DNA of 61,011 nucleotides from Clostridia bacterium (GCA_028720145.1 JAQYLJ010000052.1:1-61011), one strand, 5' to 3'; numbered from the stretch's first letter, positions 13,165 to 29,208 are shown. Notes: generated by a model from the sequence alone, not told the origin. Numbers and translations: made by a program.

Positions 13165-13416
13165 AAAAACAAAAAAGCACCCGTCTCGTTCTTTGAGACG
13201 GATGACTCCGCGGTACCACTCAAATTCACGGAAATTTCCGTGCCCTCAGGCGCTGACACGCCCCGACGCAGTTTCGCGCGTCAAACGGGAGACCCTACCC
13301 GACGAATCGCTCGAATCTCCGGCTCAGAAGCCATAGACCGTTACCGCTCGACCATCGGCTCGCACCGCCCGCCGATTCTCTGTGCGCCTTGTGGTAGGGT
13401 CCTCTTCCTCAACGCC
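13165..13416 (-). promoter_or_regulatory. T-box riboswitch, Met specifier (ATG), controlling metY-metA
   Basis: AGAGA and GGTGCGA in Stem I; specifier context ggtc-tATGg-cttc (13332-13334); T-box AATTTGAGTGGTACCGCG (13209-13226); terminator 13165-13201. Promoter TTGACA (13455-13460)-17 bp-TATAAT (13432-13437). Confidence 0.92.
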
Positions 13417-13571
13417 TTGTAATTTGAACCTATTATATCGAACTCGCGTGGCGTTGTCAAGCACAATGTCAAAAAACGCGTACCCCGCGCTTTCCGTATC
13501 GCCGAGTTTTGAATCCGAATCCATTCATTAGAAATCCTATTCATATCCAAATATATAAGAAATATCAATTT

Positions 13572-13595
13572 AGCACTTTACTTTCTTAAAGCGCT
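13572..13595 (+). promoter_or_regulatory. Palindromic operator (HisR-box-like) just upstream of a TGnTATAAT -10
   Basis: AGCACTTTA-ctttct-TAAAGCGCT, directly upstream of the TrpR-like gene. Confidence 0.6.
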
Positions 13596-13668
13596 GTGCT
13601 ATAATCAGTATCATCAAGCAGAAAGAGCGGGGGAGAGGGAACCGATATGCCCCCCGCGGGAGGCATAT

Positions 13669-13986
13669 ATGGAGAAGAAAATCGACGCGCGCACCGAGAT
13701 GGAACTGCTGTACGGCGTGATGGCGACGCTCGACACCCCCGAGAAGGTGCGAATGTTTCTGTCGGACCTCTGCACCGATAACGAGCGCGAGAATATGGCA
13801 CAGCGAGTGGAGTCCGCCCGTCTGCTCCTCGAAGGGAAGACCTATCAGCAGGTCGCCGCGGCGGTCGAGATTTCCTCCGCGACCCTCAGTCGGGTGAATC
13901 GGTGTATCAAGCACGGAGAGGGCGGATACCGCGATCTTCTCGCCGCGTACCTCGATGGGACGAAACCCGAGGGGACATCCGACTGA
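13669..13986 (+). CDS. YerC/YecD TrpR-related regulator (HisR-like)
   Basis: FLSDLCT..E...MAQR, GKTYQQV, SSATLSRVNRC, GEGGYR; GGAGG RBS. Confidence 0.9.
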   Translation: MEKKIDARTEMELLYGVMATLDTPEKVRMFLSDLCTDNERENMAQRVESARLLLEGKTYQQVAAAVEISSATLSRVNRCIKHGEGGYRDLLAAYLDGTKPEGTSD

Positions 13987-14045
13987 TGCTCGTAAAGTTT
14001 TGGAACCCTCTTGACAATCCCCGCGTTCTCGTGTTATCATCAGTC

Positions 14046-14199
14046 GACCGCGTTGGATAAGAGAGTCCAAAGTCGAGGTGGATCACGCTTGACCGAGCGG
14101 AGTAGCTATGCGGTTGAAAATGGCCGCTTCTTTGAAAGCGGAGGGCTGTGAGGCTCCGTACTGAACCGTCCGAGAGATCGGTCGGTTCTTTCATTTTTT
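14046..14199 (+). ncRNA. Candidate structured small RNA A
   Basis: Promoter TTGACA (14011)-18 bp-TATCAT (14035) with extended TG; several hairpins; terminator 14163-14199; no credible ORF. Confidence 0.55.
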
Positions 14200-14298
14200 C
14201 CGTGCTTGTACTTCTAGCATAAGCACTATCGAAAAATCTGCTCGGCATTTTTGCGTTTTGCACTTGACAGTTTTCTGATTGCCTTATATAATAGTTTC

Positions 14299-14435
14299 AC
14301 ACTTCACTGGTGCTCCGACGAGGAGAGCCTCGGCATTGCGTAGAGGCCACGGGCAGAATCTTAGGTGATTTTAAGAGCTTCGGCTCCGGGTAGACTGCCT
14401 ACCGTCTTGACTTCGGTCGAGACGGTTTTCTTTTT
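14299..14435 (+). ncRNA. Candidate structured small RNA B
   Basis: Perfect TTGACA (14264)-17 bp-TATAAT (14287); two cUUCGg tetraloops; terminator 14401-14435; no credible ORF. Confidence 0.6.
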
Positions 14436-14539
14436 CGCCTATGGGGTCTTGACAAATCTATTGGCTTTTTGTGCCGAATATGCCGGAAGTTCCCCCTTGA
14501 CAAACCCGCATCGTTTGAGTATACTGTTCCTATCTGAAA

Positions 14540-14792
14540 TGCGAAGATGGTATTATGCTAAGGCATCCCCTCTCTTAAGAGACCTGTCGGTCGGTGCGAG
14601 ACAGGAAGAGGCGCCAAGGCAGTCTCGTACCGGAGCAGGGTCCCCGAATCGAGTAAGGGATTCCGGTTTGACCCCGTAATCGGTCATGGCTTGTCTGAGC
14701 CTTGAGTGGTCGCCTAGGGGCGACAATGTCGGGTGGTACCGTGGTTGCTATGCAATCATCCCGCAGAAGTTGTTTTGACTTCTGCGGTTTTT
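14540..14792 (+). promoter_or_regulatory. T-box riboswitch, Leu specifier (CTC)
   Basis: Promoter TTGACA (14497)-17 bp-TATACT (14520); AGAGA and GGTGCGA; specifier gcag-tCTCg-tacc (14624-14626); T-box GGGTGGTACCGTG (14731-14743); terminator 14761-14792. Confidence 0.88.
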
Positions 14793-14826
14793 GTATTTTC
14801 GGGAAATAACCAAAAAGGGGAAACAT

Positions 14827-16218
14827 ATGGAAAAGACGGAAATGAAACGGATTCTGGTGTCCGATAGGACCCTCTGCGACGGCGCGGTCATGCGGGAGCA
14901 GGGACTCTCGTTCCGCGAGCGTGCGAATGTCGCCGAGGCGCTGTTCGGGCTTGGGGTGGACGCGGTCGAACTGCCTGAGATCACCCGCCCGCGGGAGGAG
15001 ACGGTCATCAATCGCACGATCAGTCTCGCGGCGGGCGAGGTCATGGTGAAGATTCCCGTAGGTCTTACCGAAGAGTCGGTCACGACCGCCTATGAGAGTG
15101 TCCGTGAGGCGAAACGCCCCTGCCTTCAGGTGGTGTTGCCCGTCTCCACTTTGCAGATGGAGTACCGTTGCCATAAGAAAGCGAGAGGGATGCTGGAGGT
15201 CGCGGAGAGTTTGTTCCGCGCCGCCAAAGCCCGTTGTGAGACGGTCGAACTCGTAGCCGAGGACGCCTCCCGCGCGGACGCGCCGTTCCTTGCGTCCCTC
15301 ATCGAAAAAGCCAAAGCGTGCGGTGTGACCTCGGTCACCCTCTGCGATGATGCGGGAATTTGGCTCCCCTGCGAGGCGAAAGCGGCGGTCAAGGATGCGA
15401 CCGCATCGGGCATTGTAGTCTCGGTCAGACCCTCGTCGAAAATCGGCATGGCGGCGGCTGTCGCCCTCGCCGCTGTCCGCGCGGGTGCCACAGGGGTCGT
15501 GACCACGGTCTCGGGAGACGGGCTCACCTCCGCCGCCTTCTCCGACCTCGTGCGTGCACGCGGAGAAGAAATCGGAGTGTCCTGCGCGCTCCGCGAGACG
15601 GGGATTCACAGCGACCTCGAACGGCTGAAGAGTGGTCTCGACGCGGGTGCCGCGGGCGCGTCCTCGCGTACCGATGCCCGTATCCGCCTGACGGGGGACG
15701 CGACTTTGAGGGAGGTCGCCGCCGCTTGTATCTCCCTCGGCTATGAACTCTCGGATAATGACCTCGGCGAGGTGCATCGCGAGGTACAGCGGGTCGCCGC
15801 AAAGAAAGAGCAGATCGGCACACGCGAACTCGAAGCCATCGTCGCCACCGCCGCCATGCAGGTACCCTCGACCTATCATCTCGAAAGCTATGTCGTCTCG
15901 TCGGGGAATGTCATTTCCGCGATGGCGCAACTCACCCTCACCTATAAAGACCGTACCCTCTCGGGCGTGAGCATGGGAGACGGTCCCATCGATGCCGCGT
16001 TCCGCGCGATTGAGCAGATCGCGGGACACCGCTATGAACTCGACGATTTCCAGATTCAGTCGGTCACGAGCGGAAAGGGCGCGGTCGGCAGCGCACTCGT
16101 CAAACTCCGTCAGGGCGGGAAACTCTATTCCGGACAGGGGATCTCGACCGACATCATCGGCGCGAGCATCCGCGCCTACCTCAACGCGCTGAATAAGATT
16201 ATCTACGAGGAAGCATAA
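14827..16218 (+). CDS. LeuA (2-isopropylmalate synthase)-like protein with degenerate catalytic barrel and intact allosteric domain
   Basis: AEDASRAD and C-terminal GDGPIDAAF / STDIIGASIRAYLNALNK are LeuA-like. DTTLRDG reads DRTLCDG, HCHND reads RPSSK, and GERAGN is absent. Confidence 0.8.
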   Translation: MEKTEMKRILVSDRTLCDGAVMREQGLSFRERANVAEALFGLGVDAVELPEITRPREETVINRTISLAAGEVMVKIPVGLTEESVTTAYESVREAKRPCLQVVLPVSTLQMEYRCHKKARGMLEVAESLFRAAKARCETVELVAEDASRADAPFLASLIEKAKACGVTSVTLCDDAGIWLPCEAKAAVKDATASGIVVSVRPSSKIGMAAAVALAAVRAGATGVVTTVSGDGLTSAAFSDLVRARGEEIGVSCALRETGIHSDLERLKSGLDAGAAGASSRTDARIRLTGDATLREVAAACISLGYELSDNDLGEVHREVQRVAAKKEQIGTRELEAIVATAAMQVPSTYHLESYVVSSGNVISAMAQLTLTYKDRTLSGVSMGDGPIDAAFRAIEQIAGHRYELDDFQIQSVTSGKGAVGSALVKLRQGGKLYSGQGISTDIIGASIRAYLNALNKIIYEEA

Positions 16219-16219
16219 G

Positions 16220-18667
16220 ATGAGACTTTCTTTCTCTTCGGATCAAGTAAATGCGCCCTCTTTCCTGTCGCTCTGCTCGACCGCGGCGGAATACGGCTAT
16301 GAGGGGGTCGAACTCTACGACCTCGCGCAGGTGAGGGAACTGCCGGACGGCCTGTTCGGGGACGACCCCGCAGGCGCGAGACGGAAACTCCGCAACCGTC
16401 GGGTTTCGGCGGTCGCGCTCACCTATCCGCTCCCCGTCGACGATACCGAAGTCTCGCGGGAGGCGGTCGAGGACTATATTGCCGCCGCCACCGAGGCGGG
16501 TATCCCCTATGTCATTGTGCGCGTCGCCGACGGCGTGAAGCCCGAAGTCCTCGCCGCCGCTTTGAGAAATGCCGCACGGACCGCGGCGAAACAGGAGGTG
16601 AAAATCCTCTTCGAGACGGTCGGCGAACTCGCGCATACCGAACGCCTGATTTCCATTCTGCACGCCTTCGCCTGTGACGGGGTCGGGGCGGCGTGGAATA
16701 TCCGCGCCACCTATTTCGAGGGTGGCGAGGGTGCCGAGGATACCATCACCACGCTCGGCGCGTATATCTCCTATGTCCGTCTCGGTGACCGCAAGAACGG
16801 TGCCGACTGCCTCATCGGGGACGGGGAACTCCCTCTCCGCGATTTTGTCAGCGCGCTCCGCTCTCTGAACTATGACGGCTATGCCGCCTGCGATACCGCG
16901 GACATTGAGGATTATGACCTACTCTTCACTCACTATGCCGCCACGTTGCGCCGCCTGACCGAGGGCGAGAAAAAAGCGATTTTGCAGAAGAACCGCTCAG
17001 GGACGGGGACCTTCCCGTGGAAGAAGTATGAAGTCGTGGACAAGACCTTTTCGCAGGTGCTCGACACTATGGTGGAACTCTATCCCGACCAGTACGCGTT
17101 CCGTTACCCCACTTTGGATTATACCCGCACCTACCGCGAGTTCCGCGACGATGTGGACCGTGTCGCGGCGGGGCTGATTTCCCTCGGTGTGAAGCCCGGA
17201 TTCCATGTCGCCATCTGGGCGACCAATGTCCCCGCGTGGTTCCTCACTTTCTGGGCGGCGGTGAAGATAGGCGCGGTGCTCGTCACCGTCAATACCGCGT
17301 ATAAGATTCAGGAGGCGGAATATCTGCTCCGTCAGTCGGACACCCATACCCTCGTGATGATTGAGAACTGTAAGGATTCCGACTATCGCGGCATCATGCA
17401 GGAGCTCTGCCCCGAACTCGCAAACATGGAGCCGGGAGACCCGCTCTATTCCGAGAAACTGCCGTTCCTCCGCCATATCGTCACCGTCGGCTTCTCCATG
17501 CCGGGGGCTCTGACATGGGAGGGACTGCTCGATCGCGCGGACACGGTTCCGCAGGAAGAGGTGCGCCGTCTCGCCGCGGGCGTGAAACCCGACGATGTCG
17601 TGAATATGCAGTACACCTCGGGTACCACGGGCTTCCCGAAAGGGGTCATGCTCACCCATCGGAATATCGTCAATAACGGCAAGATCATCGGCGACCGCAT
17701 GGATCTCTCCACCGCCGACCGCATGATGGTGCAGGTGCCGATGTTCCATTGTTTCGGCATGGTTCTGACCATGACCTCCATCATGACCCACGGCGGCACT
17801 CTCTGTCCGCTCCCGTATTTCTCTCCGAAGTCCTCGCTCGCCTGCGTGACCGAGGAGAAGATCACCTGCTTTAACGGTGTCCCTACTATGTTCATCGCCA
17901 TGTTCGCCCACGAGAATTTCGCCACGACCGATTTCTCGCATGTGCGGACGGGCATCATGGCGGGCTCGAACTGCCCCCCGGACCTCATGCGCCGCGCCGC
18001 GCGGGAGATGAACATGACCGAGATCATCAGCGTCTACGGGCAGACCGAGGCGGCGCCCGGCTGTACCATGGGGGAGGTCACCGAGGACCTCGACCACCGC
18101 GTCGAGACGGTCGGGACGGCTTTCCCGGGCGTGGAGTGTAAAATCATTGACCCCGAGACGGGACTCGACGTGCCCGACGGGCAGAACGGCGAGTTTGTCG
18201 CCCGCGGATTCAATATCATGAAAGGGTATTACAAGATGCCCCGCGCCACCGCCGCCACCATCGATAAGGACGGCTGGCTCCATTCGGGGGACATCTGTTG
18301 CCGCACCGAGGACGGGTATTACCGCGTGACCGGTCGTCTCAAGGACATGATTATCCGCGGCGGGGAGAACCTCTATCCGCGTGAAATCGAGGAGTTCTAT
18401 CTCACCCACCCGAAAGTGCGGGATGTGCAGGTCGTCGGGGTCCCCGATGCCCGCTACGGGGAAGAGGCGTGCGCTTGGATTATCCTCCATGACGGCGAGA
18501 CGGCGGACGAGGAGGAGATGCGCGCATTCGGACGCGCCCATATCGCCACCCATAAGGTGCCGCGGTACTTCGTCTTTGTCGACACCTTCCCGATGAACGC
18601 CGCAGGGAAAATTCAGAAGTATAAGATGCGCGAGATCATGTGCGAAAAGTTGGGTCTCAAACAGTAA
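16220..18667 (+). CDS. Acyl-CoA synthetase with N-terminal xylose-isomerase-like TIM-barrel domain
   Basis: YTSGTTGFPKG, YGQTE, WLHSGD, GRLKDMIIRGGEN, AGKIQK. The first ~250 aa resemble AP-endonuclease-2/sugar-isomerase barrels (YGYEGVEL, IGDGELP, YDGY). Confidence 0.88.
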   Translation: MRLSFSSDQVNAPSFLSLCSTAAEYGYEGVELYDLAQVRELPDGLFGDDPAGARRKLRNRRVSAVALTYPLPVDDTEVSREAVEDYIAAATEAGIPYVIVRVADGVKPEVLAAALRNAARTAAKQEVKILFETVGELAHTERLISILHAFACDGVGAAWNIRATYFEGGEGAEDTITTLGAYISYVRLGDRKNGADCLIGDGELPLRDFVSALRSLNYDGYAACDTADIEDYDLLFTHYAATLRRLTEGEKKAILQKNRSGTGTFPWKKYEVVDKTFSQVLDTMVELYPDQYAFRYPTLDYTRTYREFRDDVDRVAAGLISLGVKPGFHVAIWATNVPAWFLTFWAAVKIGAVLVTVNTAYKIQEAEYLLRQSDTHTLVMIENCKDSDYRGIMQELCPELANMEPGDPLYSEKLPFLRHIVTVGFSMPGALTWEGLLDRADTVPQEEVRRLAAGVKPDDVVNMQYTSGTTGFPKGVMLTHRNIVNNGKIIGDRMDLSTADRMMVQVPMFHCFGMVLTMTSIMTHGGTLCPLPYFSPKSSLACVTEEKITCFNGVPTMFIAMFAHENFATTDFSHVRTGIMAGSNCPPDLMRRAAREMNMTEIISVYGQTEAAPGCTMGEVTEDLDHRVETVGTAFPGVECKIIDPETGLDVPDGQNGEFVARGFNIMKGYYKMPRATAATIDKDGWLHSGDICCRTEDGYYRVTGRLKDMIIRGGENLYPREIEEFYLTHPKVRDVQVVGVPDARYGEEACAWIILHDGETADEEEMRAFGRAHIATHKVPRYFVFVDTFPMNAAGKIQKYKMREIMCEKLGLKQ

Positions 18668-18682
18668 CGAAAAGAAGAGATT

Positions 18683-19492
18683 ATGAGACAGGTTATCGAT
18701 TGCCATTGTCATATTTATCCCGATAAGATCGCCGCGAAGGCGGCGGGGAATACGGGGAAGTTCTACGATATTCCCATGCGGTACGACGGGCGGCTCTCGA
18801 CCATGCTCGAAGCAGGCGAGGCGGCGGGGATCACGCGCTACTTGGTTTTCTCGGTCGCGACCACGCCCGCCCAGACCGCGTCCATCAACCGCTATATCGC
18901 CGACACGGTCGCCGCGTACCCCGACCGTATGCTGGGACTGGGGACCATGCACCCCGATGAGGAGAACCCCGCCGCCGTGGCAGACGAGATTCTCGCTCTG
19001 GGGCTCAGGGGTCTCAAACTCCACCCCGATATTCAGGGGGTCGCGCTTGACGACCCGCGGTGTATGCGGATTTTCGAGGTGTGCGAGGGGCGGCTCCCCG
19101 TGCTCTTGCATACGGGGGATAAACGTTATCGGTATTCCAACCCCGAGGAATTGATCCCAGTTCTGAAAGCATTTCCGCGCCTGACGGTCATCGGCGCGCA
19201 CTTCGGCGGCTATTCGGTCTGGCAGGACGCGGCGGAGAAGCTCGCACCTTACTCCGGACTCTATGTCGACTGTTCCTCTTCGCTCTTTGCCATGACAAAC
19301 GAGGAAGGGAGACGGTTGGTGCGTCTTTGGGGCGCGGAGCGGGTGCTCTTCGGCACCGACTATCCCATGTGGGACCCCACCGAGGAACTCGCGCGTTTTG
19401 ATGCGATGGAACTTTCCGAGCGGGAGAGCGCGCTGATTCTCCATGAGAACGCCGAGCGCCTCTTCGGGTTCCCGCCTTGCGAGAACGCATAA
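18683..19492 (+). CDS. Amidohydrolase_2-family metal-dependent hydrolase
   Basis: IDCHCH, LKLHP, LHTGD, AHFGG, FGTDYP. Confidence 0.88.
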   Translation: MRQVIDCHCHIYPDKIAAKAAGNTGKFYDIPMRYDGRLSTMLEAGEAAGITRYLVFSVATTPAQTASINRYIADTVAAYPDRMLGLGTMHPDEENPAAVADEILALGLRGLKLHPDIQGVALDDPRCMRIFEVCEGRLPVLLHTGDKRYRYSNPEELIPVLKAFPRLTVIGAHFGGYSVWQDAAEKLAPYSGLYVDCSSSLFAMTNEEGRRLVRLWGAERVLFGTDYPMWDPTEELARFDAMELSERESALILHENAERLFGFPPCENA

Positions 19493-19554
19493 AAAAATCA
19501 CCGAAACGGCTTGACAAATTCCGAAAAGCATGGTATTCTTATCCCATCCAGAAA

Positions 19555-19813
19555 GACTATGACGAAGCCGGAAGTTGAACCGGACCCCAGAGAGTCGGCG
19601 GTTGGTGCGAGCCGATGCGACGGTTTGACAGTTTCCTATCCCTTCCGAGTCGGAGTGCCCAAAACGAGTGTGAGTAGGTGTTCCCGTGATGCCGCGTGAG
19701 TGCACAGGACTTGATGGAGTCCGATGAGGGCACGGTTTTATCCGTGAATTTGAGTGGTACCGCGGGTTATTTGACTCGTCTCAAAGTGTTTTGAGACGAG
19801 TCTTTTTGTTTTT
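19555..19813 (+). promoter_or_regulatory. T-box riboswitch, Ile specifier (ATC)
   Basis: Promoter TTGACA (19511)-17 bp-TATTCT; AGAGA and GGTGCGA; specifier ttcc-tATCc-cttc (19638-19640); T-box AATTTGAGTGGTACCGCG (19747-19764); terminator 19773-19813. Confidence 0.9.
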
Positions 19814-19839
19814 GAAATTGCAAACGGAGGAAATACAGT

Positions 19840-22107
19840 ATGCAGGAAACCCCCATGACACAGATAAGCGAAATCGCCGCCCGTATCCGCGGGATGCGCG
19901 AGATTCTCGGCTGGACACAGGGCGAGATGGCGGTGAAGACCGAGGTGAGCGAGGCGGATTACGGTGTCTACGAGAGCGGTAAGACCGACCTCCCGTTTAC
20001 CTTCATCCACAAGTGCGCGCTCGCGTTCGGGATGGAACTCACCGAGCTGCTCGAAGGACGGGTGCCGAACCTCTCGTCCTATACCGTCACCCGCCGCGGA
20101 GAGGGAGAACAGACCGCGAAAGAGGCAGGGATTCTCATTCGGAACCTCGCGCCCAAATTTCGCTCGAAGATAGCAGAACCCTACTGGGTGCGGTATGAGT
20201 ATTCGGAAGAGCTCCAAAATCGCCCGATTCATCTGACGCGTCACTCGGGGCAGGAGTTCGACCTCATTCTGCGCGGGAAACTCAAAGTACAGGTCGGCGA
20301 GCATACCGAGGTTCTCTCCGAGGGCGACAGCATCTACTACAACAGTTCGACCCCGCACGGCATGATTGCCGTGGACGGCGAGGACTGCGTGTTCTGCGCG
20401 GTCGTGCTCCCGGGGTCGGATGAGGAGAACACCGAGGACACCAAACTCACGGCGGCGGCGACCACCCCCGACGAGGACCTCGTGGTCGATAAGTTCGTCG
20501 AGACCAAGGTCGACGCGCAGGGCGTGCTCACCGAAGTGAAGTTCAAGAACACCGAACATTTCAACTTCGGGTTCGATATCGTGGACGCCATCGCCGAGAA
20601 GTCTCCCGACCGCCTCGCGATGCTCCACCTCGACTGCCATAAGACCGAGCGGCGGTTCACCTACCGCGACCTCCGCCGCGCGTCCAACCGCTGCGTCAAC
20701 TATTTCCGTTCGCTCGGCATCTCCCGCGGCGATAAGGTCATGCTGGTCCTCAAACGCCACCATCAGTTCTGGTTCTCGATGATTGCGCTCCATAAGCTGG
20801 GGGCTATCGCGATTCCCGCGACCTCACAGCTCAAAGAGCATGACTACGCATACCGCTTCGAGGCGGCGGGCGTGGATGCCATCATCGCCACTTCGGACGA
20901 CGGCGTGCCCGAGACCGTGGAGGCCGCGGCGAAAGCGGGGAACGCACCCGAGATCCGCGTCCTCGTCGGCGGGAAACGCGCGGGCTGGCACGACTTCGAT
21001 GCCGAATACCCGCTCTTTTCGAGCCACTACGAGCGCCCCGCGGACGCGCCCGGCGGCGACGAGACCGCCCTCATGTTCTTCACTTCGGGCACGACGGGGA
21101 ACGCCAAGATGGCGGCGCATAAGCACACCTACGGGCTCGGGCATTTCGTCACCGCGAAATACTGGCACTGTTGTGAGAAAGACGGGCTCCACTTCACCAT
21201 CTCCGATACCGGCTGGGGGAAATCCCTCTGGGGCAAGCTCTACGGGCAGTTCATGTGTGAGGGCGCGGTGTTCGTCTACGACTTCAACCGCTTCTCCGCG
21301 TCTGATTTGCTCCCGCTCTTTGCGCAGTACCATATCACCACTTTCTGCGCGCCGCCCACCATGCTCCGCATGATGATTAAAGAGGATCTCTCGGCATACG
21401 ATTTCTCTTCGGTCAAGCACATGACCACCGCGGGTGAGGCACTCAACCCCGAGGTGCAGAAACAGTTTCTCGCCGCGACCGGGCTCACCATCATGGAGGG
21501 CTTCGGACAGACCGAGACCACCCTCACCATCGCGAACCTCGCGGGCGTACAGCCCAAACTCGGCTCGATGGGGAAAGCGTCTCCCCAGTACCCCATCGTC
21601 CTCGTCGACCCGGACGGCAAGCCGGTCGGGAACGGGGAAGTGGGCGAAATCTGTGTCGACCTCTCGAACGGCGCACCAGTCGGACTCTTCTCGGGGTATT
21701 ACCGCGACTCCGAAAAGACGGCGGAGGTCATTCGCGGAGGTCTCTATCACACGGGCGATACCGCGTGGCGGGATGAGGACGGCTATTTCTACTATGTCAG
21801 CCGCGTGGACGATGTCATCAAGTCCTCGGGCTACCGCATCGGACCCTTCGAGATTGAGAGCGTGATTATGGAACTCCCCTACGTCCTCGAATGCGGGGTT
21901 TCCGCCGCGCCCGACGAGGTGCGCGGACAGGTGGTAAAGGCGAGCATCGTCTTAACCCAAGGCACCGAGCCGACAGAAGAGCTCAAAAAAGAGATTCAGG
22001 AGTATGTCAAGAGCCATACCGCACCCTATAAGTACCCCCGCATCGTGGTCTTCCGCAAGGAACTCCCCAAGACGGTCAGCGGGAAAATCCAAAGAAATCT
22101 ACTGTAA
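19840..22107 (+). CDS. XRE-HTH + cupin + medium-chain acyl-CoA synthetase fusion, copy 1
   Basis: HTH (IRGMREILGWTQGEMA), cupin (HSGQEFD, EGDSIYYNSSTPHG), FTSGTTGNAK, DTGWGK, GFGQTET, SSGYRIGPFEIE, PKTVSGK. Confidence 0.92.
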   Translation: MQETPMTQISEIAARIRGMREILGWTQGEMAVKTEVSEADYGVYESGKTDLPFTFIHKCALAFGMELTELLEGRVPNLSSYTVTRRGEGEQTAKEAGILIRNLAPKFRSKIAEPYWVRYEYSEELQNRPIHLTRHSGQEFDLILRGKLKVQVGEHTEVLSEGDSIYYNSSTPHGMIAVDGEDCVFCAVVLPGSDEENTEDTKLTAAATTPDEDLVVDKFVETKVDAQGVLTEVKFKNTEHFNFGFDIVDAIAEKSPDRLAMLHLDCHKTERRFTYRDLRRASNRCVNYFRSLGISRGDKVMLVLKRHHQFWFSMIALHKLGAIAIPATSQLKEHDYAYRFEAAGVDAIIATSDDGVPETVEAAAKAGNAPEIRVLVGGKRAGWHDFDAEYPLFSSHYERPADAPGGDETALMFFTSGTTGNAKMAAHKHTYGLGHFVTAKYWHCCEKDGLHFTISDTGWGKSLWGKLYGQFMCEGAVFVYDFNRFSASDLLPLFAQYHITTFCAPPTMLRMMIKEDLSAYDFSSVKHMTTAGEALNPEVQKQFLAATGLTIMEGFGQTETTLTIANLAGVQPKLGSMGKASPQYPIVLVDPDGKPVGNGEVGEICVDLSNGAPVGLFSGYYRDSEKTAEVIRGGLYHTGDTAWRDEDGYFYYVSRVDDVIKSSGYRIGPFEIESVIMELPYVLECGVSAAPDEVRGQVVKASIVLTQGTEPTEELKKEIQEYVKSHTAPYKYPRIVVFRKELPKTVSGKIQRNLL

Positions 22108-22160
22108 AAACACTTGACACAATTTGCGAAGTATGATAGGATAATACCAAATTTATTAAA

Positions 22161-22420
22161 GGCGATGAAGAAAAGGGCGTTTGTTTTGCTTCTTCAGAGA
22201 CATGGCGGTCGGTGCGAGCCATGGGGGCGGTCAAATGTTTGTAGTTTCCGAGCCGAGAGGAAGAAAGGGAGACCGAGTAGACCCTCTCCGTCACTTGCCG
22301 CGTCAGTGCATAGGACTTGTCAGAGTCCGATAAGGGCACGGAGTTTTCCGTGAATTTGAGTGGTACCGCGGGTTTTACGACTCGTCTCAAAGTCATACTT
22401 TGGGGCGGGTCTTTCTGTTT
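22161..22420 (+). promoter_or_regulatory. T-box riboswitch, Val specifier (GTA)
   Basis: TTGACA at 22114; AGAGA and GGTGCGA; specifier atgtt-tGTAg-tttc (22241-22243); T-box AATTTGAGTGGTACCGCG (22353-22370); terminator 22379-22420. Confidence 0.9.
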
Positions 22421-22438
22421 CCCGCCGAAGGAGAATTT

Positions 22439-24733
22439 ATGCAGAAAACACGGGATTTGGAAGTAAAGATTCTCGAAATGGCGCAGAGAATCCGTGCGCT
22501 GCGCGAGATCGTCGGACTGTCGAGTGCGGAAATGGCGGAAAAGACCGATGTCGAAGAGGAAGAATACCTCGCCTGCGAGGCGGGGAAAGAGGACTTAAAC
22601 TTCGCATTCCTCTACCGCTGCGCACAGGCGCTCGGGGTCGATGTCACCGATATCATCGAGGGGACGGGGCCCCGCCTGTCCTCGTATACCGTCACGAGAC
22701 GGGGAGAGGGACAGAAAATCGAACAGGCGCACGGCATGGTGTACTATAACCTCGCCGCCGCGTTCAAGAACCGTATCGCGGAGCCGCTGTATGTCTGTTC
22801 CGCCTATTCCGAGGAAGCGACAGGCAAGGACATTCCCCTGACCACCCACCTCGGGCAGGAGTGCGATATCATCGTCAAAGGTGTACTCAAAGTGCAGGTC
22901 GGCGACCATATCGAGATTCTGCGCGCGGGCGACAGCATTTACTATGACAGTTCGACCCCGCACGGCATGATTGCCCTCGAAGGGGCGGACTGCTGGTTCT
23001 ACGCCATCGTCCTGAACCCGACGGGGGAACCCATGTCCACCCTGACCCACAGCGGGGTGCGCGAGTTCATCACCCTGCCGCCGAAGTTCACGCCCAAGCA
23101 CCGCTTCGTTTGGGAGGACTTCATCGTGGCGGAAGAGGACGAGACGGGCGCACTCAAAAAACTGACCTTCAAAAATCAGGAGAAATTCAACTTCGCATTC
23201 GATGTCATCGACCGTCTCGGCACCGAGCAGGCGGGGAAACTCGCGATGCTCCATCTCGACAGAAACAAAACCGAGCGCCGTTTCACGTTCGGAGACCTCA
23301 AACGCGCGTCGGCGCAGGCGGCGAACTATTTCCGCTCGCTCGGAATCAAACGGGGTGATCGGGTGCTTCTCATTCTCAAACGGCATTACCAGTTCTGGAT
23401 TGCCATTTTGGGGCTGATGAAACTCGGGGCGATTGCCATCCCCGCGCCCAACCAGTTGCGCGAGCACGATATTTCCTACCGTCTGAACCGCGCCGAGATT
23501 AAGGCGATTCTCTGTACCGCGGACGGCGATGTCTCGGGCGAGGTGGACGCGGCTGCCGCGTCGGCACCCTGTCTCGAAACAAAAATCATGGTGGACGGGC
23601 ACCGCGACGGCTGGCATGACTTCGATGCTGAATACCCGCTCTTTACCGGCAAATTCGAGCGCACCGAGGACACCCCCTGCGGCGAGGATATTATGCTCAT
23701 GTACTTCACCTCGGGCACCTCGGGGAATCCGAAAATCGCCGTACATAACTACGAATACCCGCTCGGGCATTTCCACACCGCGAAATATTGGCATTGCGTC
23801 GACCCCGACGGACTCCATTTCACCGTGTCGGACACGGGATGGGCGAAAGCCGCGTGGGGGAAAATCTTCGGACAATGGCTCTGTGAGGCGGCGATCTTCG
23901 TCTACGACTTCGACCGCTTTGACGCGGCGGATATTCTCCCCATGTTCGCGAAATACCACATCACCACTTTCTGTGCGCCGCCCACCATCCTCCGCATGAT
24001 GGTGAAGCAGGATATCGGGAAATACGACCTCTCGTCGGTCACCCACATGACGACCGCGGGCGAGGCGCTGAACCCCGAGGTCTTCCGCCAGTTCGAGGCG
24101 GCGACGGGGCTCACCATCATGGAGGGCTTCGGACAGACCGAGACCACCTGCGCCATCGCCAATCTGGTCGGCACCCGTGCGCGTCTCGGCTCGATGGGGA
24201 AACCCGTGCCGCTCTACCATATAGAACTATTGAATCCGGCGGGAGAACCCGTGCCGGACGGCGAAGTCGGAGAAATCTGTATCGATGTCTCAAACGGTGC
24301 GCCCTGCGGACTTTTCCGCGGCTACTACCGCGACGAGGAAAAGACGGCGGAGTGCTGGCACGACGGGTACTACCACACGGGCGATACCGCGTGGCGTGAC
24401 GAGGACGGCTACTTCTGGTATGTCGGACGCATCGACGACCTCATCAAGTCCTCGGGCTATCGCATTGGACCCTTCGAGATTGAGAATGTCATAATGGAAC
24501 TCCCGTATGTCCTCGAATGCGGGGTCTCCGCCGCACCCGACGAGGTGCGCGGACAGGTGGTGAAGGCGAGTATCGTCCTCACCCCGGGGACCGAACCGAC
24601 AGAAGAACTCAAAAAAGAGATTCAGGAGTATGTCAAGGCGCGTACCGCCCCGTATAAGTACCCGCGTATCGTGGTGTTCAAGGACGAACTGCCCAAGACC
24701 ACGAGCGGTAAGATTCAGAGAAATCAACTGTGA
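22439..24733 (+). CDS. XRE-HTH + cupin + medium-chain acyl-CoA synthetase fusion, copy 2
   Basis: Same architecture as copy 1; FTSGTSGNPK, DTGWAK, GFGQTET, PKTTSGK; AAGGAG RBS before ATG 22439. Confidence 0.92.
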   Translation: MQKTRDLEVKILEMAQRIRALREIVGLSSAEMAEKTDVEEEEYLACEAGKEDLNFAFLYRCAQALGVDVTDIIEGTGPRLSSYTVTRRGEGQKIEQAHGMVYYNLAAAFKNRIAEPLYVCSAYSEEATGKDIPLTTHLGQECDIIVKGVLKVQVGDHIEILRAGDSIYYDSSTPHGMIALEGADCWFYAIVLNPTGEPMSTLTHSGVREFITLPPKFTPKHRFVWEDFIVAEEDETGALKKLTFKNQEKFNFAFDVIDRLGTEQAGKLAMLHLDRNKTERRFTFGDLKRASAQAANYFRSLGIKRGDRVLLILKRHYQFWIAILGLMKLGAIAIPAPNQLREHDISYRLNRAEIKAILCTADGDVSGEVDAAAASAPCLETKIMVDGHRDGWHDFDAEYPLFTGKFERTEDTPCGEDIMLMYFTSGTSGNPKIAVHNYEYPLGHFHTAKYWHCVDPDGLHFTVSDTGWAKAAWGKIFGQWLCEAAIFVYDFDRFDAADILPMFAKYHITTFCAPPTILRMMVKQDIGKYDLSSVTHMTTAGEALNPEVFRQFEAATGLTIMEGFGQTETTCAIANLVGTRARLGSMGKPVPLYHIELLNPAGEPVPDGEVGEICIDVSNGAPCGLFRGYYRDEEKTAECWHDGYYHTGDTAWRDEDGYFWYVGRIDDLIKSSGYRIGPFEIENVIMELPYVLECGVSAAPDEVRGQVVKASIVLTPGTEPTEELKKEIQEYVKARTAPYKYPRIVVFKDELPKTTSGKIQRNQL

Positions 24734-24744
24734 GAAGGAGATAG

Positions 24745-25821
24745 ATGATGGAAATTCAATTCACGCCGACCGCGACCCCGAAAGAAAAGCCGAAAGACGA
24801 GAGCAAACTCGGCTTCGGGAAGATTTTTACCGACTATATGTTCGTCATGGACTACTCCGCCGATAAGGGGTGGCATGACGCCCGCATTATCCCTTACGGA
24901 CCCCTTGCTCTGAATCCCGCCTCTTCGGTGCTTCACTATGGGACCGAGATTTTCGAGGGGCTGAAAGCCTACCGCACGAGCGACGGTGAAATCCGTCTGT
25001 TCCGCCCGTGGGAGAACATTCGCCGCATGAATAACAGTGCCGAGCGTCTGTGTCTGCCCGAGGTGGACGAGGAATTTGTCCTCTCGGCGTTCGACCGCCT
25101 CGTCACGCTCGAAAAGGACTGGGTGCCGCACGAAGAGGGGACCTCGCTGTACCTGCGCCCGTTCATGTACGGGAACGACCCGCACCTCGGCGTGCACGCG
25201 GTGCATGACGCGACCTTCGTCATCATCTGCTCTCCCGTCGGCGCGTATTACGCCGAGGGCATCAACCCCGTGAAGATTATCATTGAAGATAAAGATGTCC
25301 GCGCCGTCCGCGGCGGTACGGGGTACGCCAAGTGCGGCGGTAACTACGCCGCCAGTCTCCGCGCAGGGAAGAAAGCAGAAGAAAAGGGCTATACGCAGGT
25401 TCTTTGGCTCGATGGCGTGGAGCGGAAGTACATCGAGGAAGTCGGGTCGATGAATGTCATGTTCAAGATCGACGGCACCATCGTCACCCCCGCGCTCCTC
25501 GGCTCGGTGCTCCCGGGCATCACCCGGAAATCCTGTATCGAACTTCTGAAATCTTGGGGCTACAAGGTCGAAGAGAGACAGCTCTCGGTCGATGAACTGG
25601 TTGCCGCCATCAAGGACGGGAAACTCGAAGAGGCATGGGGCACGGGGACTGCCGCCGTGGTGTCTCCCATCGGGACCCTCTGCTATGAAAATGTCGAGTA
25701 TACCGTGAACGGGAGTAAAATCGGCGAGATTACCCAGCGGCTCTATGACGAACTCACCGGGATTCAATGGGGCAGACAGCCCGACCCGTTCTCTTGGTGC
25801 CATACGGTCTGCCGCGCATGA
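24745..25821 (+). CDS. ilvE: Branched-chain amino acid aminotransferase
   Basis: LGFGKIFTD, LHYG..IFEGLKAY, LYLRPF, AKCGGNYA, EEVGSMN, LPGITR, GTGTAAV. Confidence 0.96.
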   Translation: MMEIQFTPTATPKEKPKDESKLGFGKIFTDYMFVMDYSADKGWHDARIIPYGPLALNPASSVLHYGTEIFEGLKAYRTSDGEIRLFRPWENIRRMNNSAERLCLPEVDEEFVLSAFDRLVTLEKDWVPHEEGTSLYLRPFMYGNDPHLGVHAVHDATFVIICSPVGAYYAEGINPVKIIIEDKDVRAVRGGTGYAKCGGNYAASLRAGKKAEEKGYTQVLWLDGVERKYIEEVGSMNVMFKIDGTIVTPALLGSVLPGITRKSCIELLKSWGYKVEERQLSVDELVAAIKDGKLEEAWGTGTAAVVSPIGTLCYENVEYTVNGSKIGEITQRLYDELTGIQWGRQPDPFSWCHTVCRA

Positions 25822-26486
25822 CCGCGACATTACCACCCCCGCACCGCGTGACCCTGTTCGCGGGGCATTACGGGAGCGGGAAGACCAATCTGGCGGTCAA
25901 TCGGGCGCTCGCCCTGCGCGCGGCGGGTTATCCCGTCGCCATCGCCGACCTTGATATCGTCAATCCCTATTTCCGTACCAAAGACAGCGCGGCGGAACTC
26001 GCCGCGGCGGGGATTCCTCTGATTTCCCCCGCGTTCGCGAACTCGAATGTCGATCTCCCTGCGCTCCCCAAAGAGGTCTATGAACTCGTGGACGACCGCA
26101 GTACCCTCGCCATCTTCGATGTCGGCGGAGACGACCGCGGCGCGTACGCGCTCGGACGGTACACCCCCTCGATTCTCGAAGAGGGCGACTACGAGATGAT
26201 TTTCGTCGCGAACTTCTGCCGCCCCTTGACGCGCACCGCCGCGGAGGCGCTCGAAGTCATGCGCGAGATTGAGGCGGCGGGCGGGATTCCCTTTACGGGA
26301 ATCGTCAATAACTCCAATATCGGGGAAGAGACCACCCCCGAGACCCTGCGCGCCACTTACGCGACGGCGGAAGAACTCGCGCGCCTGTCCCGGCTGCCCA
26401 TCCTCTTTTGCTCGGCTGACCGTCGTGTCGCTATGCAGATGGAAGAGCCGGTATTCGGGATGCAATTACAGAAAAAAGTATTTTGA
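25818..26486 (+). CDS. P-loop NTPase-like protein preceding the oxidoreductase genes
   Basis: GHYGSGKT, DLDIVNPYFR, DVGGD; ATGA overlap with ilvE. Confidence 0.8.
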   Translation: MTATLPPPHRVTLFAGHYGSGKTNLAVNRALALRAAGYPVAIADLDIVNPYFRTKDSAAELAAAGIPLISPAFANSNVDLPALPKEVYELVDDRSTLAIFDVGGDDRGAYALGRYTPSILEEGDYEMIFVANFCRPLTRTAAEALEVMREIEAAGGIPFTGIVNNSNIGEETTPETLRATYATAEELARLSRLPILFCSADRRVAMQMEEPVFGMQLQKKVF

Positions 26487-26504
26487 CTGAGAAGGAGAAA
26501 TGAG

Positions 26505-26711
26505 ATGCCAAAGGTAACATTTCGGTCAGACCTTTGTAAGGGGTGCGGACTGTGCGTCGCCGCCTGTCCGAAGAAGATTATCACCCTCGCCAAAGGGAAA
26601 ATCAATCAGAAAGGACATTCCCCCGCCGAGGTGACCGACCCGAGCGCGTGTATCGGTTGTGCATTCTGCGCGACCATGTGCCCGGACTGCGTGATTACGG
26701 TGGAGAAGTGA
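26505..26711 (+). CDS. 2[4Fe-4S] ferredoxin subunit (delta) of 2-oxoacid:ferredoxin oxidoreductase
   Basis: CKGCGLCVAACP and CIGCAFCATMCP. Confidence 0.93.
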   Translation: MPKVTFRSDLCKGCGLCVAACPKKIITLAKGKINQKGHSPAEVTDPSACIGCAFCATMCPDCVITVEK

Positions 26712-26723
26712 GAGGAGAGACAG

Positions 26724-27785
26724 ATGGCTGATAAAGTACTTATGAAAGGCAACGAGGCGATTGCGGAAGCGGCGATTCGCGCGGGTTGCCGTCACTACTT
26801 CGGATACCCCATCACCCCCCAGACCGAGGTGGCGGCGTATATGGCGAAGCGGATGCCGAAAATCGGCGGCGTGTTCCTCCAGGCGGAGAGCGAGATTTCC
26901 GCCATCAATATGGTGTACGGGGTCGCGAGCGCGGGTATGCGCGTCATGACCTCTTCGTCCAGTCCCGGGATTTCTTTGAAACAGGAGGGGATTTCCTACC
27001 TCGCGGGCGCAGACCTGCCCGCGCTCATTGTCAATGTCCAGCGCGGCGGACCCGGGCTCGGCGGGATTCAGCCCTCCCAGTCCGACTATTTCCAGGCGAC
27101 CAAGGGCGGCGGGCACGGCGACTATCATCTGATTGTCCTCGCCCCTGCGTCGGTGCAGGAAATGGCGGATATGACGGGGAAGGCGTTTGACCTCGCGGAC
27201 GAATATCGGATGCCCGTCATGCTGCTCGCGGACGGGACGATGGGACAGATGATGGAGCCGGTCACCCTGCCCGAGACGGCACCCCGCACGGTCGAGAAAC
27301 CGTGGGCGGTCACAGGTACGCAAGGGAAGCGGGAACACAATATCATCAACTCGCTGTACCTGAAACCCGAGATTCTCGAACGCACCAACCTTGAACGCTA
27401 TGACCGCTATCGGGTCATCGAAGAGAAAGAGCCGCTGTGGGAGGAATACCTCACCGAGGACGCGGATATTTGCGTGGTCGCGTTCGGCATCGCAGCCCGC
27501 GTGTCCAAGAACGCGGTGAAAGCCGCCCGCGCAAAGGGCATCAAAGCGGGTCTCATTCGTCCCATCACCCTTTGGCCGTTCCCGAAGGCACCGCTCGCGA
27601 AAGCCGCCGAGCACGCAAAGGCGTTTCTCTCGGTCGAACTCTCGATGGGGCAGATGATCGAGGATATCGAACTCGCGATTCGTTGCCGTCGTCCGGTCAC
27701 GCTCTGTAACCGTACCGGCGGTATGATTCCCACGCCCGAGGAAGTCCTCGCGGCGATTGAAAAAGCGGCGGGAGGAGAGAACTGA
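26724..27785 (+). CDS. vorB: 3-methyl-2-oxobutanoate:ferredoxin oxidoreductase alpha-type subunit
   Basis: MKGNEAIAE, YFGYPITPQ, QAESE, TSSSSPG, QRGGPGLG, ATKGGGHGD. Confidence 0.88.
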   Translation: MADKVLMKGNEAIAEAAIRAGCRHYFGYPITPQTEVAAYMAKRMPKIGGVFLQAESEISAINMVYGVASAGMRVMTSSSSPGISLKQEGISYLAGADLPALIVNVQRGGPGLGGIQPSQSDYFQATKGGGHGDYHLIVLAPASVQEMADMTGKAFDLADEYRMPVMLLADGTMGQMMEPVTLPETAPRTVEKPWAVTGTQGKREHNIINSLYLKPEILERTNLERYDRYRVIEEKEPLWEEYLTEDADICVVAFGIAARVSKNAVKAARAKGIKAGLIRPITLWPFPKAPLAKAAEHAKAFLSVELSMGQMIEDIELAIRCRRPVTLCNRTGGMIPTPEEVLAAIEKAAGGEN

Positions 27786-28537
27786 TGATTATTTTTGAGA
27801 AACCGAAATCCCTCGCGGATGTTCCGCTTCACTATTGCCCGGGCTGTACCCACGGGATTATCCATCGTCTTGTCGCAGAGGCGATCGACGACCTCGGGAT
27901 TGAGGGGAAGACCGTCGGCGTTGCTCCCGTCGGATGCGCCGTCATGGCATACGACTACTTCACCTGCGATATGGTCGAGGCGGCACACGGCAGAGCGCCA
28001 GCCGTCGCGACGGGCTTAAAACGCGCGATGCCCGAGAATATCATCTTCACCTATCAGGGGGACGGCGACCTCGCCTCCATCGGGATGGCGGAGACGGTGC
28101 ACGCCGCGACGAGAAACGAGAATATCACGATTATCTTCGTCAATAACGCGATTTACGGCATGACGGGCGGGCAGATGGCGCCCACCTCGCTCCCGGGACA
28201 GGTCACGCAGACCTCGCCTTACGGGCGGGATGTGCAGACGGTCGGCTACCCCATCCGCGTCTCCGAGATGCTCGCCGCACTCGACGGACCCTACTATATC
28301 GAGCGGGTCGCCGTCAACAGCGTGAAGCACGTCCGCGACGCGAAGAAAGCCATTCGCCACGCGTTCGAGAATCAGGTGGCGGGAAAGGGCTTCTCCCTCA
28401 TCGAGGTGGTGTCCTCCTGCCCGACGAACTGGGGCATGACCCCCGAGAAGGCGCTCGCGTGGGTGGACGAGAAGATGATTCCGTACTATCCGCTCGGCGT
28501 GTATAAAGACAAAGATAAGGAGGCGGGAGAAGCATGA
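27785..28537 (+). CDS. TPP-binding beta subunit of 2-oxoacid:ferredoxin oxidoreductase
   Basis: YCPGCTHG, HGRA, QGDGD, NNAIYGMTGGQMAPT, SCPTNW. Confidence 0.92.
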   Translation: MIIFEKPKSLADVPLHYCPGCTHGIIHRLVAEAIDDLGIEGKTVGVAPVGCAVMAYDYFTCDMVEAAHGRAPAVATGLKRAMPENIIFTYQGDGDLASIGMAETVHAATRNENITIIFVNNAIYGMTGGQMAPTSLPGQVTQTSPYGRDVQTVGYPIRVSEMLAALDGPYYIERVAVNSVKHVRDAKKAIRHAFENQVAGKGFSLIEVVSSCPTNWGMTPEKALAWVDEKMIPYYPLGVYKDKDKEAGEA

Positions 28538-29067
28538 CCCATGAAATTCTGATTGCGGGATTCGGCGGACAGGGAGTCCTCTTTGCCGGGAAATTCCTCG
28601 CCTACCGCGGGCTGATGGAGGAGAAACAGGTCAGCTGGCTCCCGTCCTACGGACCCGAGATGCGCGGCGGCACCGCGAATTGCAGCGTCATCCTCTCGGA
28701 CGACCCGGTCGGCTCTCCCATCGTTGCGCACCCCGATGTTTTGATGGTGATGAACCTGCCGTCGTTTGATAAGTACGAGTCCGAGGCAAAACCCGGCGCA
28801 AAAGTTTTTGTGGACTCCACGCTGATTGAGCGGCAGGCGACGAGAGACGACATCGAGACCTTCTATATCCCCGCCACCCAGATGGCGCGGGAAGCGGGTG
28901 TCCCCACCCTCGCGAACATGATGATGGTCGGGAAGATGATGAAGGAGGTCGGCATCTCGTTCGACCATGTCGAAGACGCCCTCCGCAAAGTCGTCTCGGC
29001 GAAACACGCCGACCTCTTTGACGCGAACCTGAAAGCCATTCAGACGGGCTACGCCTACGAGGGCTGA
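28534..29067 (+). CDS. Gamma subunit of 2-oxoacid:ferredoxin oxidoreductase
   Basis: AGFGGQG, PSYGPEMRGG. Confidence 0.92.
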   Translation: MTHEILIAGFGGQGVLFAGKFLAYRGLMEEKQVSWLPSYGPEMRGGTANCSVILSDDPVGSPIVAHPDVLMVMNLPSFDKYESEAKPGAKVFVDSTLIERQATRDDIETFYIPATQMAREAGVPTLANMMMVGKMMKEVGISFDHVEDALRKVVSAKHADLFDANLKAIQTGYAYEG

Positions 29068-29102
29068 CCCCCCGCGGGGCACCGCCCCCGCGCTTCATTA
29101 AG

Positions 29103-29130
29103 AAAAACACCCGAGAAATCGGGTGTTTTT
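29103..29130. terminator. Bidirectional intrinsic terminator
   Basis: AAAAACACCCGA-gaaa-TCGGGTGTTTTT between convergent genes. Confidence 0.75.
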
Positions 29131-29208
29131 CTGTTTCTTTCCCTTGCACATCTCCGCCTCGGTATCATCATCCGTTTTTCGCTTGGAAACAGGAGACAAA
29201 AGCCTCGT

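Follow-up and report, generated by a model that had tools for sequence, protein, structure and literature searches.

A T-box-addressed acyl-CoA ligase locus in a Clostridia bacterium and its proposed role in the salvage of branched short-chain acids to leucine, isoleucine and valine

Main Finding

The window analyzed here, a 61,011-nucleotide stretch of DNA from a Clostridia bacterium (GCA_028720145.1, JAQYLJ010000052.1:1-61011), contains three transcription units in series, each headed by a T-box leader and each encoding an AMP-forming acyl-CoA ligase. The specifiers of the leaders read leucine, isoleucine and valine, and the last unit also encodes the transaminase IlvE and a four-subunit VOR-type 2-oxoacid:ferredoxin oxidoreductase (VOR). 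We consider it likely that this locus is a salvage route that produces branched-chain amino acids (BCAAs), namely leucine, isoleucine and valine, out of the gut's branched short-chain acids and replaces the missing ilv/leu pathway. The biosynthetic reading appears well supported by the sequence comparisons described below; the substrates, the direction of flux and the induction of the units are what we infer.

In the proposed mechanism, uncharged tRNA-Leu (GAG), tRNA-Ile (GAU) or tRNA-Val (UAC) would base-pair with its own T-box at both the specifier and the UGGU bulge, which would block formation of the leader terminator. T-boxes turn genes on when an amino acid is scarce and its cognate tRNA is uncharged. 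The AMP-forming ligase of the unit would turn the matching acid into its CoA thioester, with 2-methylbutyrate used by the Ile-clade ligase, isobutyrate by the Val-clade ligase and probably isovalerate by the TIM-barrel ligase of the Leu unit. The single VOR would then carboxylate the acyl-CoA reductively with reduced ferredoxin, and the single IlvE would transaminate the resulting 2-oxoacid to the amino acid.

T-Box Leaders and Codon Register

The presence of T-box leaders was investigated with the Rfam model RF00230 in a permissive-filter scan covering 13900-23000, and in the covariance alignment the specifier was read as the triplet preceding the final unpaired nucleotide of the specifier loop. 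This alignment confirmed what the original prediction, made from the sequence alone, had claimed, namely three T-boxes with the specifiers CTC (14624), ATC (19638) and GTA (22241). Its description of the units was borne out as well: each has its own promoter-like site and a different AMP-forming ligase, and family models agree that the last unit continues into ilvE, a P-loop protein and four VOR-type subunits (Table 1). Terminator hairpins carrying T runs overlapped the 3' ends of all three leaders, and between the units no terminator-like site besides these T-box terminators was found (14497-29132). The T-box bulge was UGGU in all three leaders, a bulge that suits a tRNA with discriminator A.

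The whole genome gave eight T-box matches, and the five outside the Leu, Ile and Val leaders served as register controls. Their specifiers were AUC before ileS (followed by C, the identical unusual context to that of the Ile unit), GUC before valS, AUG before metY-metA and AAC before asnS-asnA; the fifth control, ahead of a TrpB-like PALP gene, read UGG and had UGGC as its bulge. Specifier and downstream gene agreed in five of five control leaders, which validates the codon register within the genome. Genes for tRNA-Leu (GAG) and tRNA-Val (UAC) were identified with ARAGORN.

Missing Canonical Pathway and Its Distribution

The genome is a 1.90 Mb draft, 97.8% complete. Searches of the whole genome returned no match to ilvD, ilvC or ilvB (acetolactate synthase large subunit). 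Matches to leuB and leuC were weak (130 and 109 bits vs. cut-offs of 353 and 560), and those to leuA did not exceed 110 bits (cut-off 599). Apart from the LeuA-like gene of the window, these weak leu matches were grouped on contig C5, where the leuA match scored 98 bits, and no credible leuBCD was present. The absence of ilvBCD and leuBCD, first claimed for the window, therefore extends genome-wide. The draft genome likewise yielded neither BrnQ nor a LivK-type binding protein. The weak leuB, leuC and leuA matches on contig C5 resemble isocitrate dehydrogenase, aconitase and a citrate-synthase-type enzyme. Homocitrate/citrate-synthase-like, aconitase and isocitrate-dehydrogenase-like genes lie together on this contig (43569-47791, minus strand), and this cluster looks like an oxidative branch of the tricarboxylic acid cycle leading to 2-oxoglutarate, which IlvE would require as acceptor of the amino group.

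The distribution of ilvD was compared with that of the ligases in 201 genomes of the order; the relatives are non-independent, and the resulting counts are descriptive only. Genomes with at least two ligase matches (n = 105) mostly lacked ilvD (85 without, 20 with). The gene was absent in 22 of the 96 genomes with none or one, comprising 5 without and 29 with ilvD at one ligase match, and 17 without and 45 with ilvD at no match. Five genomes were scored ilvD-negative by judgement, their full-length IlvD/Edd-family hits lying at ~505-525 bits, below the cut-off. The contrast was also seen at the family level: in one family (f4) the ligase was present in 4/4 genomes and ilvD in 0/4, and in another (f30) the ligase was present in 0/10 and ilvD in 10/10.

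The Ile and Val Ligases

The Ile unit consists of one gene, and the Val unit opens with its paralogue (62% identity). All three ligases of the locus contain the Pfam domains AMP-binding (310.9, 211.7 and 222.3 bits; cut-off 29.9) and AMP-binding_C (64-76 bits; cut-off 24.5). Among NCBIfam models, the Ile and Val ligases scored highest with MbcS (NF047394), at 423.3 and 440 bits and short of its equivalog cut-off of 850, so that both enzymes are relatives of MbcS and not orthologues. According to the accessible part of its description, MbcS is selective for 2-methylbutyrate and isobutyrate, with isovalerate a poor substrate (PMC10026030). The Val ligase, the one of the pair searched against the PDB, had 3ETC as its best match (599 bits, E 1e-178). 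This is MacsMa of Methanosarcina acetivorans, which, in the part of the paper available, prefers 2-methylbutyrate and depends critically on Trp259 (PMC10455477). A Trp is kept in both the Ile and the Val ligase at what appears to be this position, given the numbering offset that we deduced for 3ETC. We propose that the Ile-clade enzyme is a 2-methylbutyrate-CoA ligase and the Val-clade enzyme an isobutyrate-CoA ligase. The C2-branched acids would go to one ligase family and the C3-branched acid to another, and a separate ligase clade for the Leu unit fits the weak isovalerate handling by MbcS noted in that source.

Comparison of the two clades across related loci identified nine positions that were at least 90% conserved per clade yet different between them. 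Eight of the nine are in the module made of a helix-turn-helix (HTH) and a cupin domain (58, 71, 92, 95, 98, 100, 110 and 188 in Ile-ligase numbering), and because the discriminating residues cluster there, the cupin may bind something different in the two clades. The sole discriminating residue of the catalytic domain follows the motif DTGW and is Gly in 48/48 Ile-clade and Ala in 76/76 Val-clade sequences; 3ETC has Gly at this position. In acetyl-CoA synthetase the residue after the equivalent Trp presumably lines the acyl pocket, and if the post-DTGW residue does so here, the larger acid pairs with the smaller side chain. Modelled with AlphaFold, residues 1-235 showed an HTH plus a cupin (pLDDT 79.5), and a Foldseek search matched this model to HppE and a Vibrio HTH_3 regulator, which confirmed the two-domain fold and named no ligand.

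Specifier-Ligase Pairing in Related Loci

A scan with one genome per species returned 574 sequences related to the Val ligase; the 80 top-ranking loci, all from metagenome-assembled Clostridia bar one oddly labelled record, were used. A stem-I covariance model built from the eight T-boxes of this genome gave 165 matches in the window and the 80 loci, 161 of them being leaders in 78 loci other than the window. Two loci, L036 and L063, gave no T-box match; the sequence of L036 starts 155 bases before the ligase. For 150 matches the model alignment supplied the specifier; the 15 unaligned ones were read from the match end and checked individually. The match-end offset rule disagreed with the alignment in 6 of the 150 rows, and the alignment columns were used.

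The specifier tracked the ligase clade almost perfectly, and 78 of the 80 related loci kept the pairing, whose check in relatives the original prediction had suggested. Leaders of Ile-type ligases read ATC in 48/48 cases, and 76 of the 79 leaders of Val-type ligases carried a Val codon (73 GTA, 3 GTC). For the LeuA-like genes, CTC was called automatically in 30 of 31 leaders and by eye in the remaining one (L035). The codon stayed constant even though the base behind it varied, being A in 24, C in 23 and G in 1 of the Ile leaders. In a FastTree phylogeny of 129 ligases, the 48 Ile- and 76 Val-labelled rows needed one label change. Because orthologues inherit their leaders, such pairing shows long retention and not repeated independent origin.

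Gene order was likewise recurrent. The common order was the ATC leader with the Ile ligase, the GTA leader with the Val ligase, then (IlvE), the P-loop gene, VorDBAC and (IlvE), and the unit of CTC leader, LeuA-like gene and TIM-barrel ligase stood either before or after this block. A second HTH-cupin ligase lay directly upstream of the Val ligase in 43/65 loci, the VOR block followed the Val ligase in 55 of the 69 loci with sufficient downstream sequence, and the LeuA-like gene directly preceded the TIM-barrel ligase in all 35 assessable loci.

Three observations on individual sequences are recorded here. In L089, the leader of the Val-type ligase (9695-9795) reads CUG (Leu), not GUA, and a LeuA-like/TIM-ligase pair lies downstream of VOR and IlvE without a T-box of its own (16652-20550); the operon may have been re-addressed, or the change may be due to chance. 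L016, labelled Akkermansia muciniphila, has a Clostridia-type locus with ~80% protein identity to the window, and because the label names a Verrucomicrobial species, the contig is probably mis-binned or mislabelled. Pig-gut metatranscriptome contigs (four runs, two studies) contained scattered pieces of 13200-29200 at ≥95% identity, one of which starts at the end of the Ile ligase, spans the complete Val leader and reaches into the Val ligase; these contigs carry no level, strand or ends and may include DNA carry-over, and they were not counted as expression evidence, just as no meaning attaches to the stretches left uncovered.

The Leu Unit

The ligase of the Leu unit belongs to a different clade from the HTH-cupin ligases, with which it shares 25% identity, and it is PRK12583-like at 680 bits (cut-off 832). 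It is probably an isovalerate-CoA ligase. This assignment is weaker than those to 2-methylbutyrate and isobutyrate because the Leu unit comprises a degenerate LeuA homologue and a TIM-barrel fusion of a different ligase clade. The claim that the codons predict the ligase substrates thus stands best for the Ile and Val ligases, which lie near 2-methylbutyrate and isobutyrate enzymes, and less firmly for isovalerate. The original prediction was right that the Leu unit holds a third ligase and incomplete in its account of the unit, as it mentioned neither the LeuA-like and Amidohydro_2 genes nor the N-terminal fusions of the three ligases; the Met T-box described below was also absent from it.

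The LeuA-like protein reached 234 bits with its best LeuA model (cut-off 532). Compared with the isopropylmalate synthases in the PDB, it has LCDGAV for LRDGEQ and RPSSK for HxHND. Across 36 orthologues the catalytic-motif positions lack conservation (27 have Ser in place of the second His), and invariant residues are concentrated in the C-terminal allosteric domain. Identity among orthologues is 39-62%, compared with 54-80% for the adjacent ligase, so that the LeuA-like protein evolves faster. We read it as a likely pseudoenzyme that keeps a leucine-binding domain, and we hypothesize that it might regulate the neighbouring ligase. The TIM-barrel domain of the fusion protein also varies more than the whole protein (27-64% vs. 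54-80% identity) and has few invariant residues. Its model (pLDDT 93) was matched by Foldseek to ketose 3-epimerases and dehydroshikimate dehydratase at 13-20% identity, matches that yield no function.

The three extra enzyme-family domains of the Leu unit raise the question of whether it does more than activate isovalerate. The TIM barrel, LeuA-like protein and amidohydrolase could make up a short pathway in which a different precursor is converted to isovaleryl-CoA or 2-oxoisocaproate, a possibility in keeping with the uncharacterised clade of the Leu ligase and with the invariant E141, D146, R149 and D174 that the LeuA-like barrel retains. We regard this as rather unlikely, since the same barrel lacks the RDGEQ and HxH motifs, whose positions drift in the orthologues, conservation of the TIM barrel is far below that of the ligase, with not one invariant His, and the amidohydrolase shifts position or is missing in many loci. 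CTC also precedes all 31 LeuA-like genes, and VOR and IlvE would complete the route from isovaleryl-CoA.

The Shared Enzymes and the Direction of the Pathway

IlvE and VOR are single-copy, with no second copy found in the genome by tblastn. The alpha, beta, gamma and delta subunits of a 2-oxoisovalerate:ferredoxin oxidoreductase are all present, its putative identity as VOR being assigned by homology. The P-loop protein has a GxxGxGKT loop and was always encoded directly upstream of VorD (in the window and in the 55 loci with the VOR block). Sequence searches of the PDB and searches of the Atlas found no characterised relative of it and yielded family-level names alone for both this protein and the amidohydrolase. 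The P-loop protein might serve VOR as a maturation or accessory factor.

Two other readings of the shared enzymes were considered. The ligases could mainly feed membrane lipids by supplying branched acyl-CoA primers for FabH, with VOR and IlvE as housekeeping neighbours; the T-boxes would then switch on when BCAAs, the normal source of primers, are scarce. The closest named family, MbcS, has its shown role in branched-chain fatty acid synthesis, as stated in the accessible part of PMC10026030, the Val-T-box ligase lacked an adjacent VOR in 14 of the 69 assessable loci, and ilvD was present in 29 of the 34 genomes with a single ligase match. We nevertheless think this reading unlikely. IlvE and VOR shared the T-box-controlled unit in 55/69 loci, where induction by valine starvation is sensible only towards valine; no other BCAA source was found in the genome; genomes with at least two ligases mostly lacked ilvD; and three amino-acid-specific switches would be needless for lipid primers. 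Lipid and amino-acid roles can coexist.

VOR and IlvE are reversible, and gut clostridia use related oxidoreductases oxidatively. The locus might on these grounds be catabolic, with IlvE and VOR degrading BCAAs to acyl-CoAs and the ligases running in reverse or detoxifying acids. This is highly improbable given that T-boxes activate on uncharged cognate tRNA and that AMP-forming ligases are poor catabolic enzymes, conserving no energy in reverse. Furthermore, no phosphotransacylase/kinase or ADP-forming synthetase was found among the open reading frames scanned with Pfam and NCBIfam models (14497-29067), and the conservation of specifiers over 78 loci argues for an amino-acid-specific need. 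The biosynthetic direction proposed at the outset survived all computational tests run (register, missing pathway, pairing and enzyme relatives) and is the one we favor.

A number of observations weigh against biosynthetic salvage from branched acids. The Leu, Ile and Val leaders score 84.4-88.6 bits, and no T-box in the window reached the RF00230 gathering threshold of 93 bits; because the ileS (91.1 bits) and valS (81.6 bits) leaders of the same genome are likewise below 93, this cut-off is strict for the lineage. No tRNA-Ile was found by ARAGORN among the 43 assembled tRNAs, nor was tRNA-Asn, which is an assembly gap. VOR and IlvE stand behind the Val T-box only, here and in the 55 of 69 assessable loci mentioned above, which leaves a rise of both under Leu-only or Ile-only starvation unexplained. 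Three of the 79 Val-type leaders differ, reading CTG (L089), GGA (L072) and ATC (L024), the last preceding a divergent ligase equidistant from both paralogues. The placement of the Gly/Ala position in the acyl pocket is presumed from acetyl-CoA synthetase structures. The Leu ligase is without a characterised close relative, its best PDB match being a fatty-acyl/feruloyl-CoA synthetase at 270 bits. Peptide uptake could still supply BCAAs, and the presence of ilvD in 20/105 multi-ligase genomes indicates that the cluster is not always a replacement of the canonical pathway.

Table 1. Coordinates of the features of the proposed branched-acid ligase locus in the window.
Feature	Position	Strand	Details
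Promoter-like site, Leu unit	14497..14525	+	TTGACA-17-TATACT, 11/12 matches
T-box leader, Leu unit	14535..14766	+	RF00230 84.4 bits, E 1.1e-17, model 1-219
Specifier CUC (Leu), next base G	14624-14626	+	Covariance alignment
Terminator hairpin, 3' end of Leu leader	14761-14787	+	
LeuA-like protein	14827..16218	+	HMGL-like 84.9 bits; LeuA_dimer PF08502 103.6 bits (cut-off 24.9)
TIM barrel-AMP-forming ligase fusion, 815 residues	16220..18667	+	Barrel residues 1-262, xylose-isomerase-like
Amidohydro_2 family protein	18683..19492	+	Pfam; loosely attached to the cluster
Promoter-like site, Ile unit	19511..19539	+	10/12 matches, with TG
T-box leader, Ile unit	19550..19786	+	RF00230 86.2 bits, E 4e-18, model 1-219
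Specifier AUC (Ile), next base C	19638-19640	+	Covariance alignment
Terminator hairpin, 3' end of Ile leader	19773-19802	+	
HTH(XRE)-cupin-AMP ligase fusion, Ile clade, 755 residues	19840..22107	+	Gly after DTGW
Promoter-like site, Val unit	22114..22142	+	10/12 matches, with TG
T-box leader, Val unit	22156..22392	+	RF00230 88.6 bits, E 9.3e-19, model 1-219
Specifier GUA (Val), next base G	22241-22243	+	Covariance alignment
Terminator hairpin, 3' end of Val leader	22379-22411	+	
HTH(XRE)-cupin-AMP ligase fusion, Val clade, 764 residues	22439..24733	+	Ala after DTGW
IlvE	24745..25821	+	NF009897 488.6 (cut-off 307); TIGR01123 404.1 (cut-off 250)
CbiA/ParA-type P-loop protein	25767..26486	+	Likely start near 25818
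VOR delta subunit	26505..26711	+	2x[4Fe-4S] ferredoxin, Fer4 domains
VOR alpha subunit (VorB)	26724..27785	+	NF005507 560.3 bits, cut-off 399
VOR beta subunit, thiamine pyrophosphate-binding	27785..28537	+	TPP_enzyme_C
VOR gamma subunit	28534..29067	+	2-oxoacid:ferredoxin oxidoreductase gamma models, all below cut-off
Terminator-like hairpin closing the locus	29101..29132	+	

Neighbouring Features

A fourth T-box of the window (13191-13421, minus strand; 81.6 bits, specifier AUG for Met) is divergent from the Leu unit. It drives metY (O-acetylhomoserine sulfhydrylase; 11796-13259, minus strand) and metA (10877-11794, minus strand) from a promoter at 13460 with 12/12 matches, and the divergent arrangement of metY-metA and the Leu unit recurs in L016 and L017. 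Between the two, at 14264-14430 (plus strand), a perfect promoter (TTGACA-17-TATAAT) is followed ~110 nucleotides later by a strong terminator (14401-14426). This segment has no open reading frame of note and no Rfam match and is not conserved in L016 or L017; we regard it as a small-RNA candidate. The sole match at an Rfam gathering threshold in the window was a tRNA gene (47471-47552, minus strand; 53.8 bits) whose variable arm is long.

Elsewhere in the genome, a stand-alone TrpB-like PALP gene lies behind the Trp T-box with its UGG specifier and UGGC bulge (contig C5, 37816-38050, minus strand), and a Trp T-box has the same position in locus L095 (6350-7903, minus strand). Indole-to-tryptophan salvage, in parallel to branched-acid salvage, would fit this arrangement.

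Comparison with Known Systems

The chemistry, the T-boxes, VOR, IlvE, MbcS and MacsMa are already known. The Ile and Val ligases share the AMP-forming mechanism with MbcS of Staphylococcus aureus, which is the best-scoring named family of their ligase domains. Unlike MbcS, they carry an HTH-cupin module, fall into two specialised clades and lie behind T-boxes, and their linkage is to VOR and IlvE, whereas MbcS is linked to lipid synthesis. Of the solved structures, MacsMa (3ETC) comes closest to the Val ligase, and its Gly after GW resembles the Ile clade; unlike the ligases of the locus, it is archaeal, stand-alone and without a T-box, and the accessible part of PMC10455477 does not link its role to amino acid synthesis. 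The LeuA-like protein resembles LeuA (2-isopropylmalate synthase) in its HMGL-like barrel and allosteric (dimerisation) domain and differs from it in that the catalytic motifs are lost and the genome holds no leuBCD partners.

Carboxylation of branched acids to valine, isoleucine and leucine in rumen anaerobes has been known physiologically since the 1960s. The proposed route follows the same sequence of acid, acyl-CoA, 2-oxoacid and amino acid as reductive carboxylation in rumen anaerobes and methanogens. The genome paper of Methanobrevibacter ruminantium, in its accessible part, infers carboxylation of 2-methylbutyrate as a route to isoleucine (PMC2812497). In contrast to the locus, this literature is physiological, and the searchable papers assign no ligase genes, amino-acid-specific regulation or operon. 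The leaders are identical in architecture and logic to those of Firmicutes T-box regulation (RF00230). The targets differ from those of usual T-box regulons in being acyl-CoA ligases, and three specificities in series label their presumed substrates.

No paper linking T-boxes with branched-acid ligases or VOR was found in the searchable literature, which excludes supplementary regulon tables. Neither acyl-CoA nor ferredoxin oxidoreductase is mentioned in the main text of PMC2494555 or PMC3766115, and the supplementary tables of both could list such genes. Three ligases assigned to three acids by three serial leaders, the two fusion families, the dead LeuA and an order-wide replacement of ilv/leu were likewise not found in the searchable literature.

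The HTH-cupin modules and the degenerate LeuA protein may be amino-acid sensors that provide a second, protein-level control. We tentatively put forward a more specific version of branched-acid salvage, which is possible and which we hold with far less confidence than the salvage itself. In this version, each of three channels would be doubly controlled by its own amino acid, through the T-box RNA and through a protein sensor at the ATP-consuming step (HTH-cupin, or dead LeuA with the TIM-barrel ligase), a Gly/Ala switch in the acyl pocket would set 2-methylbutyrate against isobutyrate, and the system would operate in many gut and rumen Clostridia, which would have abandoned de novo BCAA synthesis in its favor.

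Implications

Isoacids have been known for decades to be needed or used by rumen and gut anaerobes and are fed to cattle. The bacterial genes that activate each isoacid are unassigned in the searchable papers, and the locus names candidate genes for all three acid channels, each with a built-in codon label. In the dead LeuA and the HTH-cupin fusions, enzyme domains may have been reused as amino-acid sensors, which would add new examples of such reuse. Genome-based calls would score organisms of this kind as BCAA auxotrophs, and they may be prototrophic where branched acids are present; in the sample of the order, the 85 of 201 genomes with at least two ligases and no ilvD are relevant to such auxotrophy calls.

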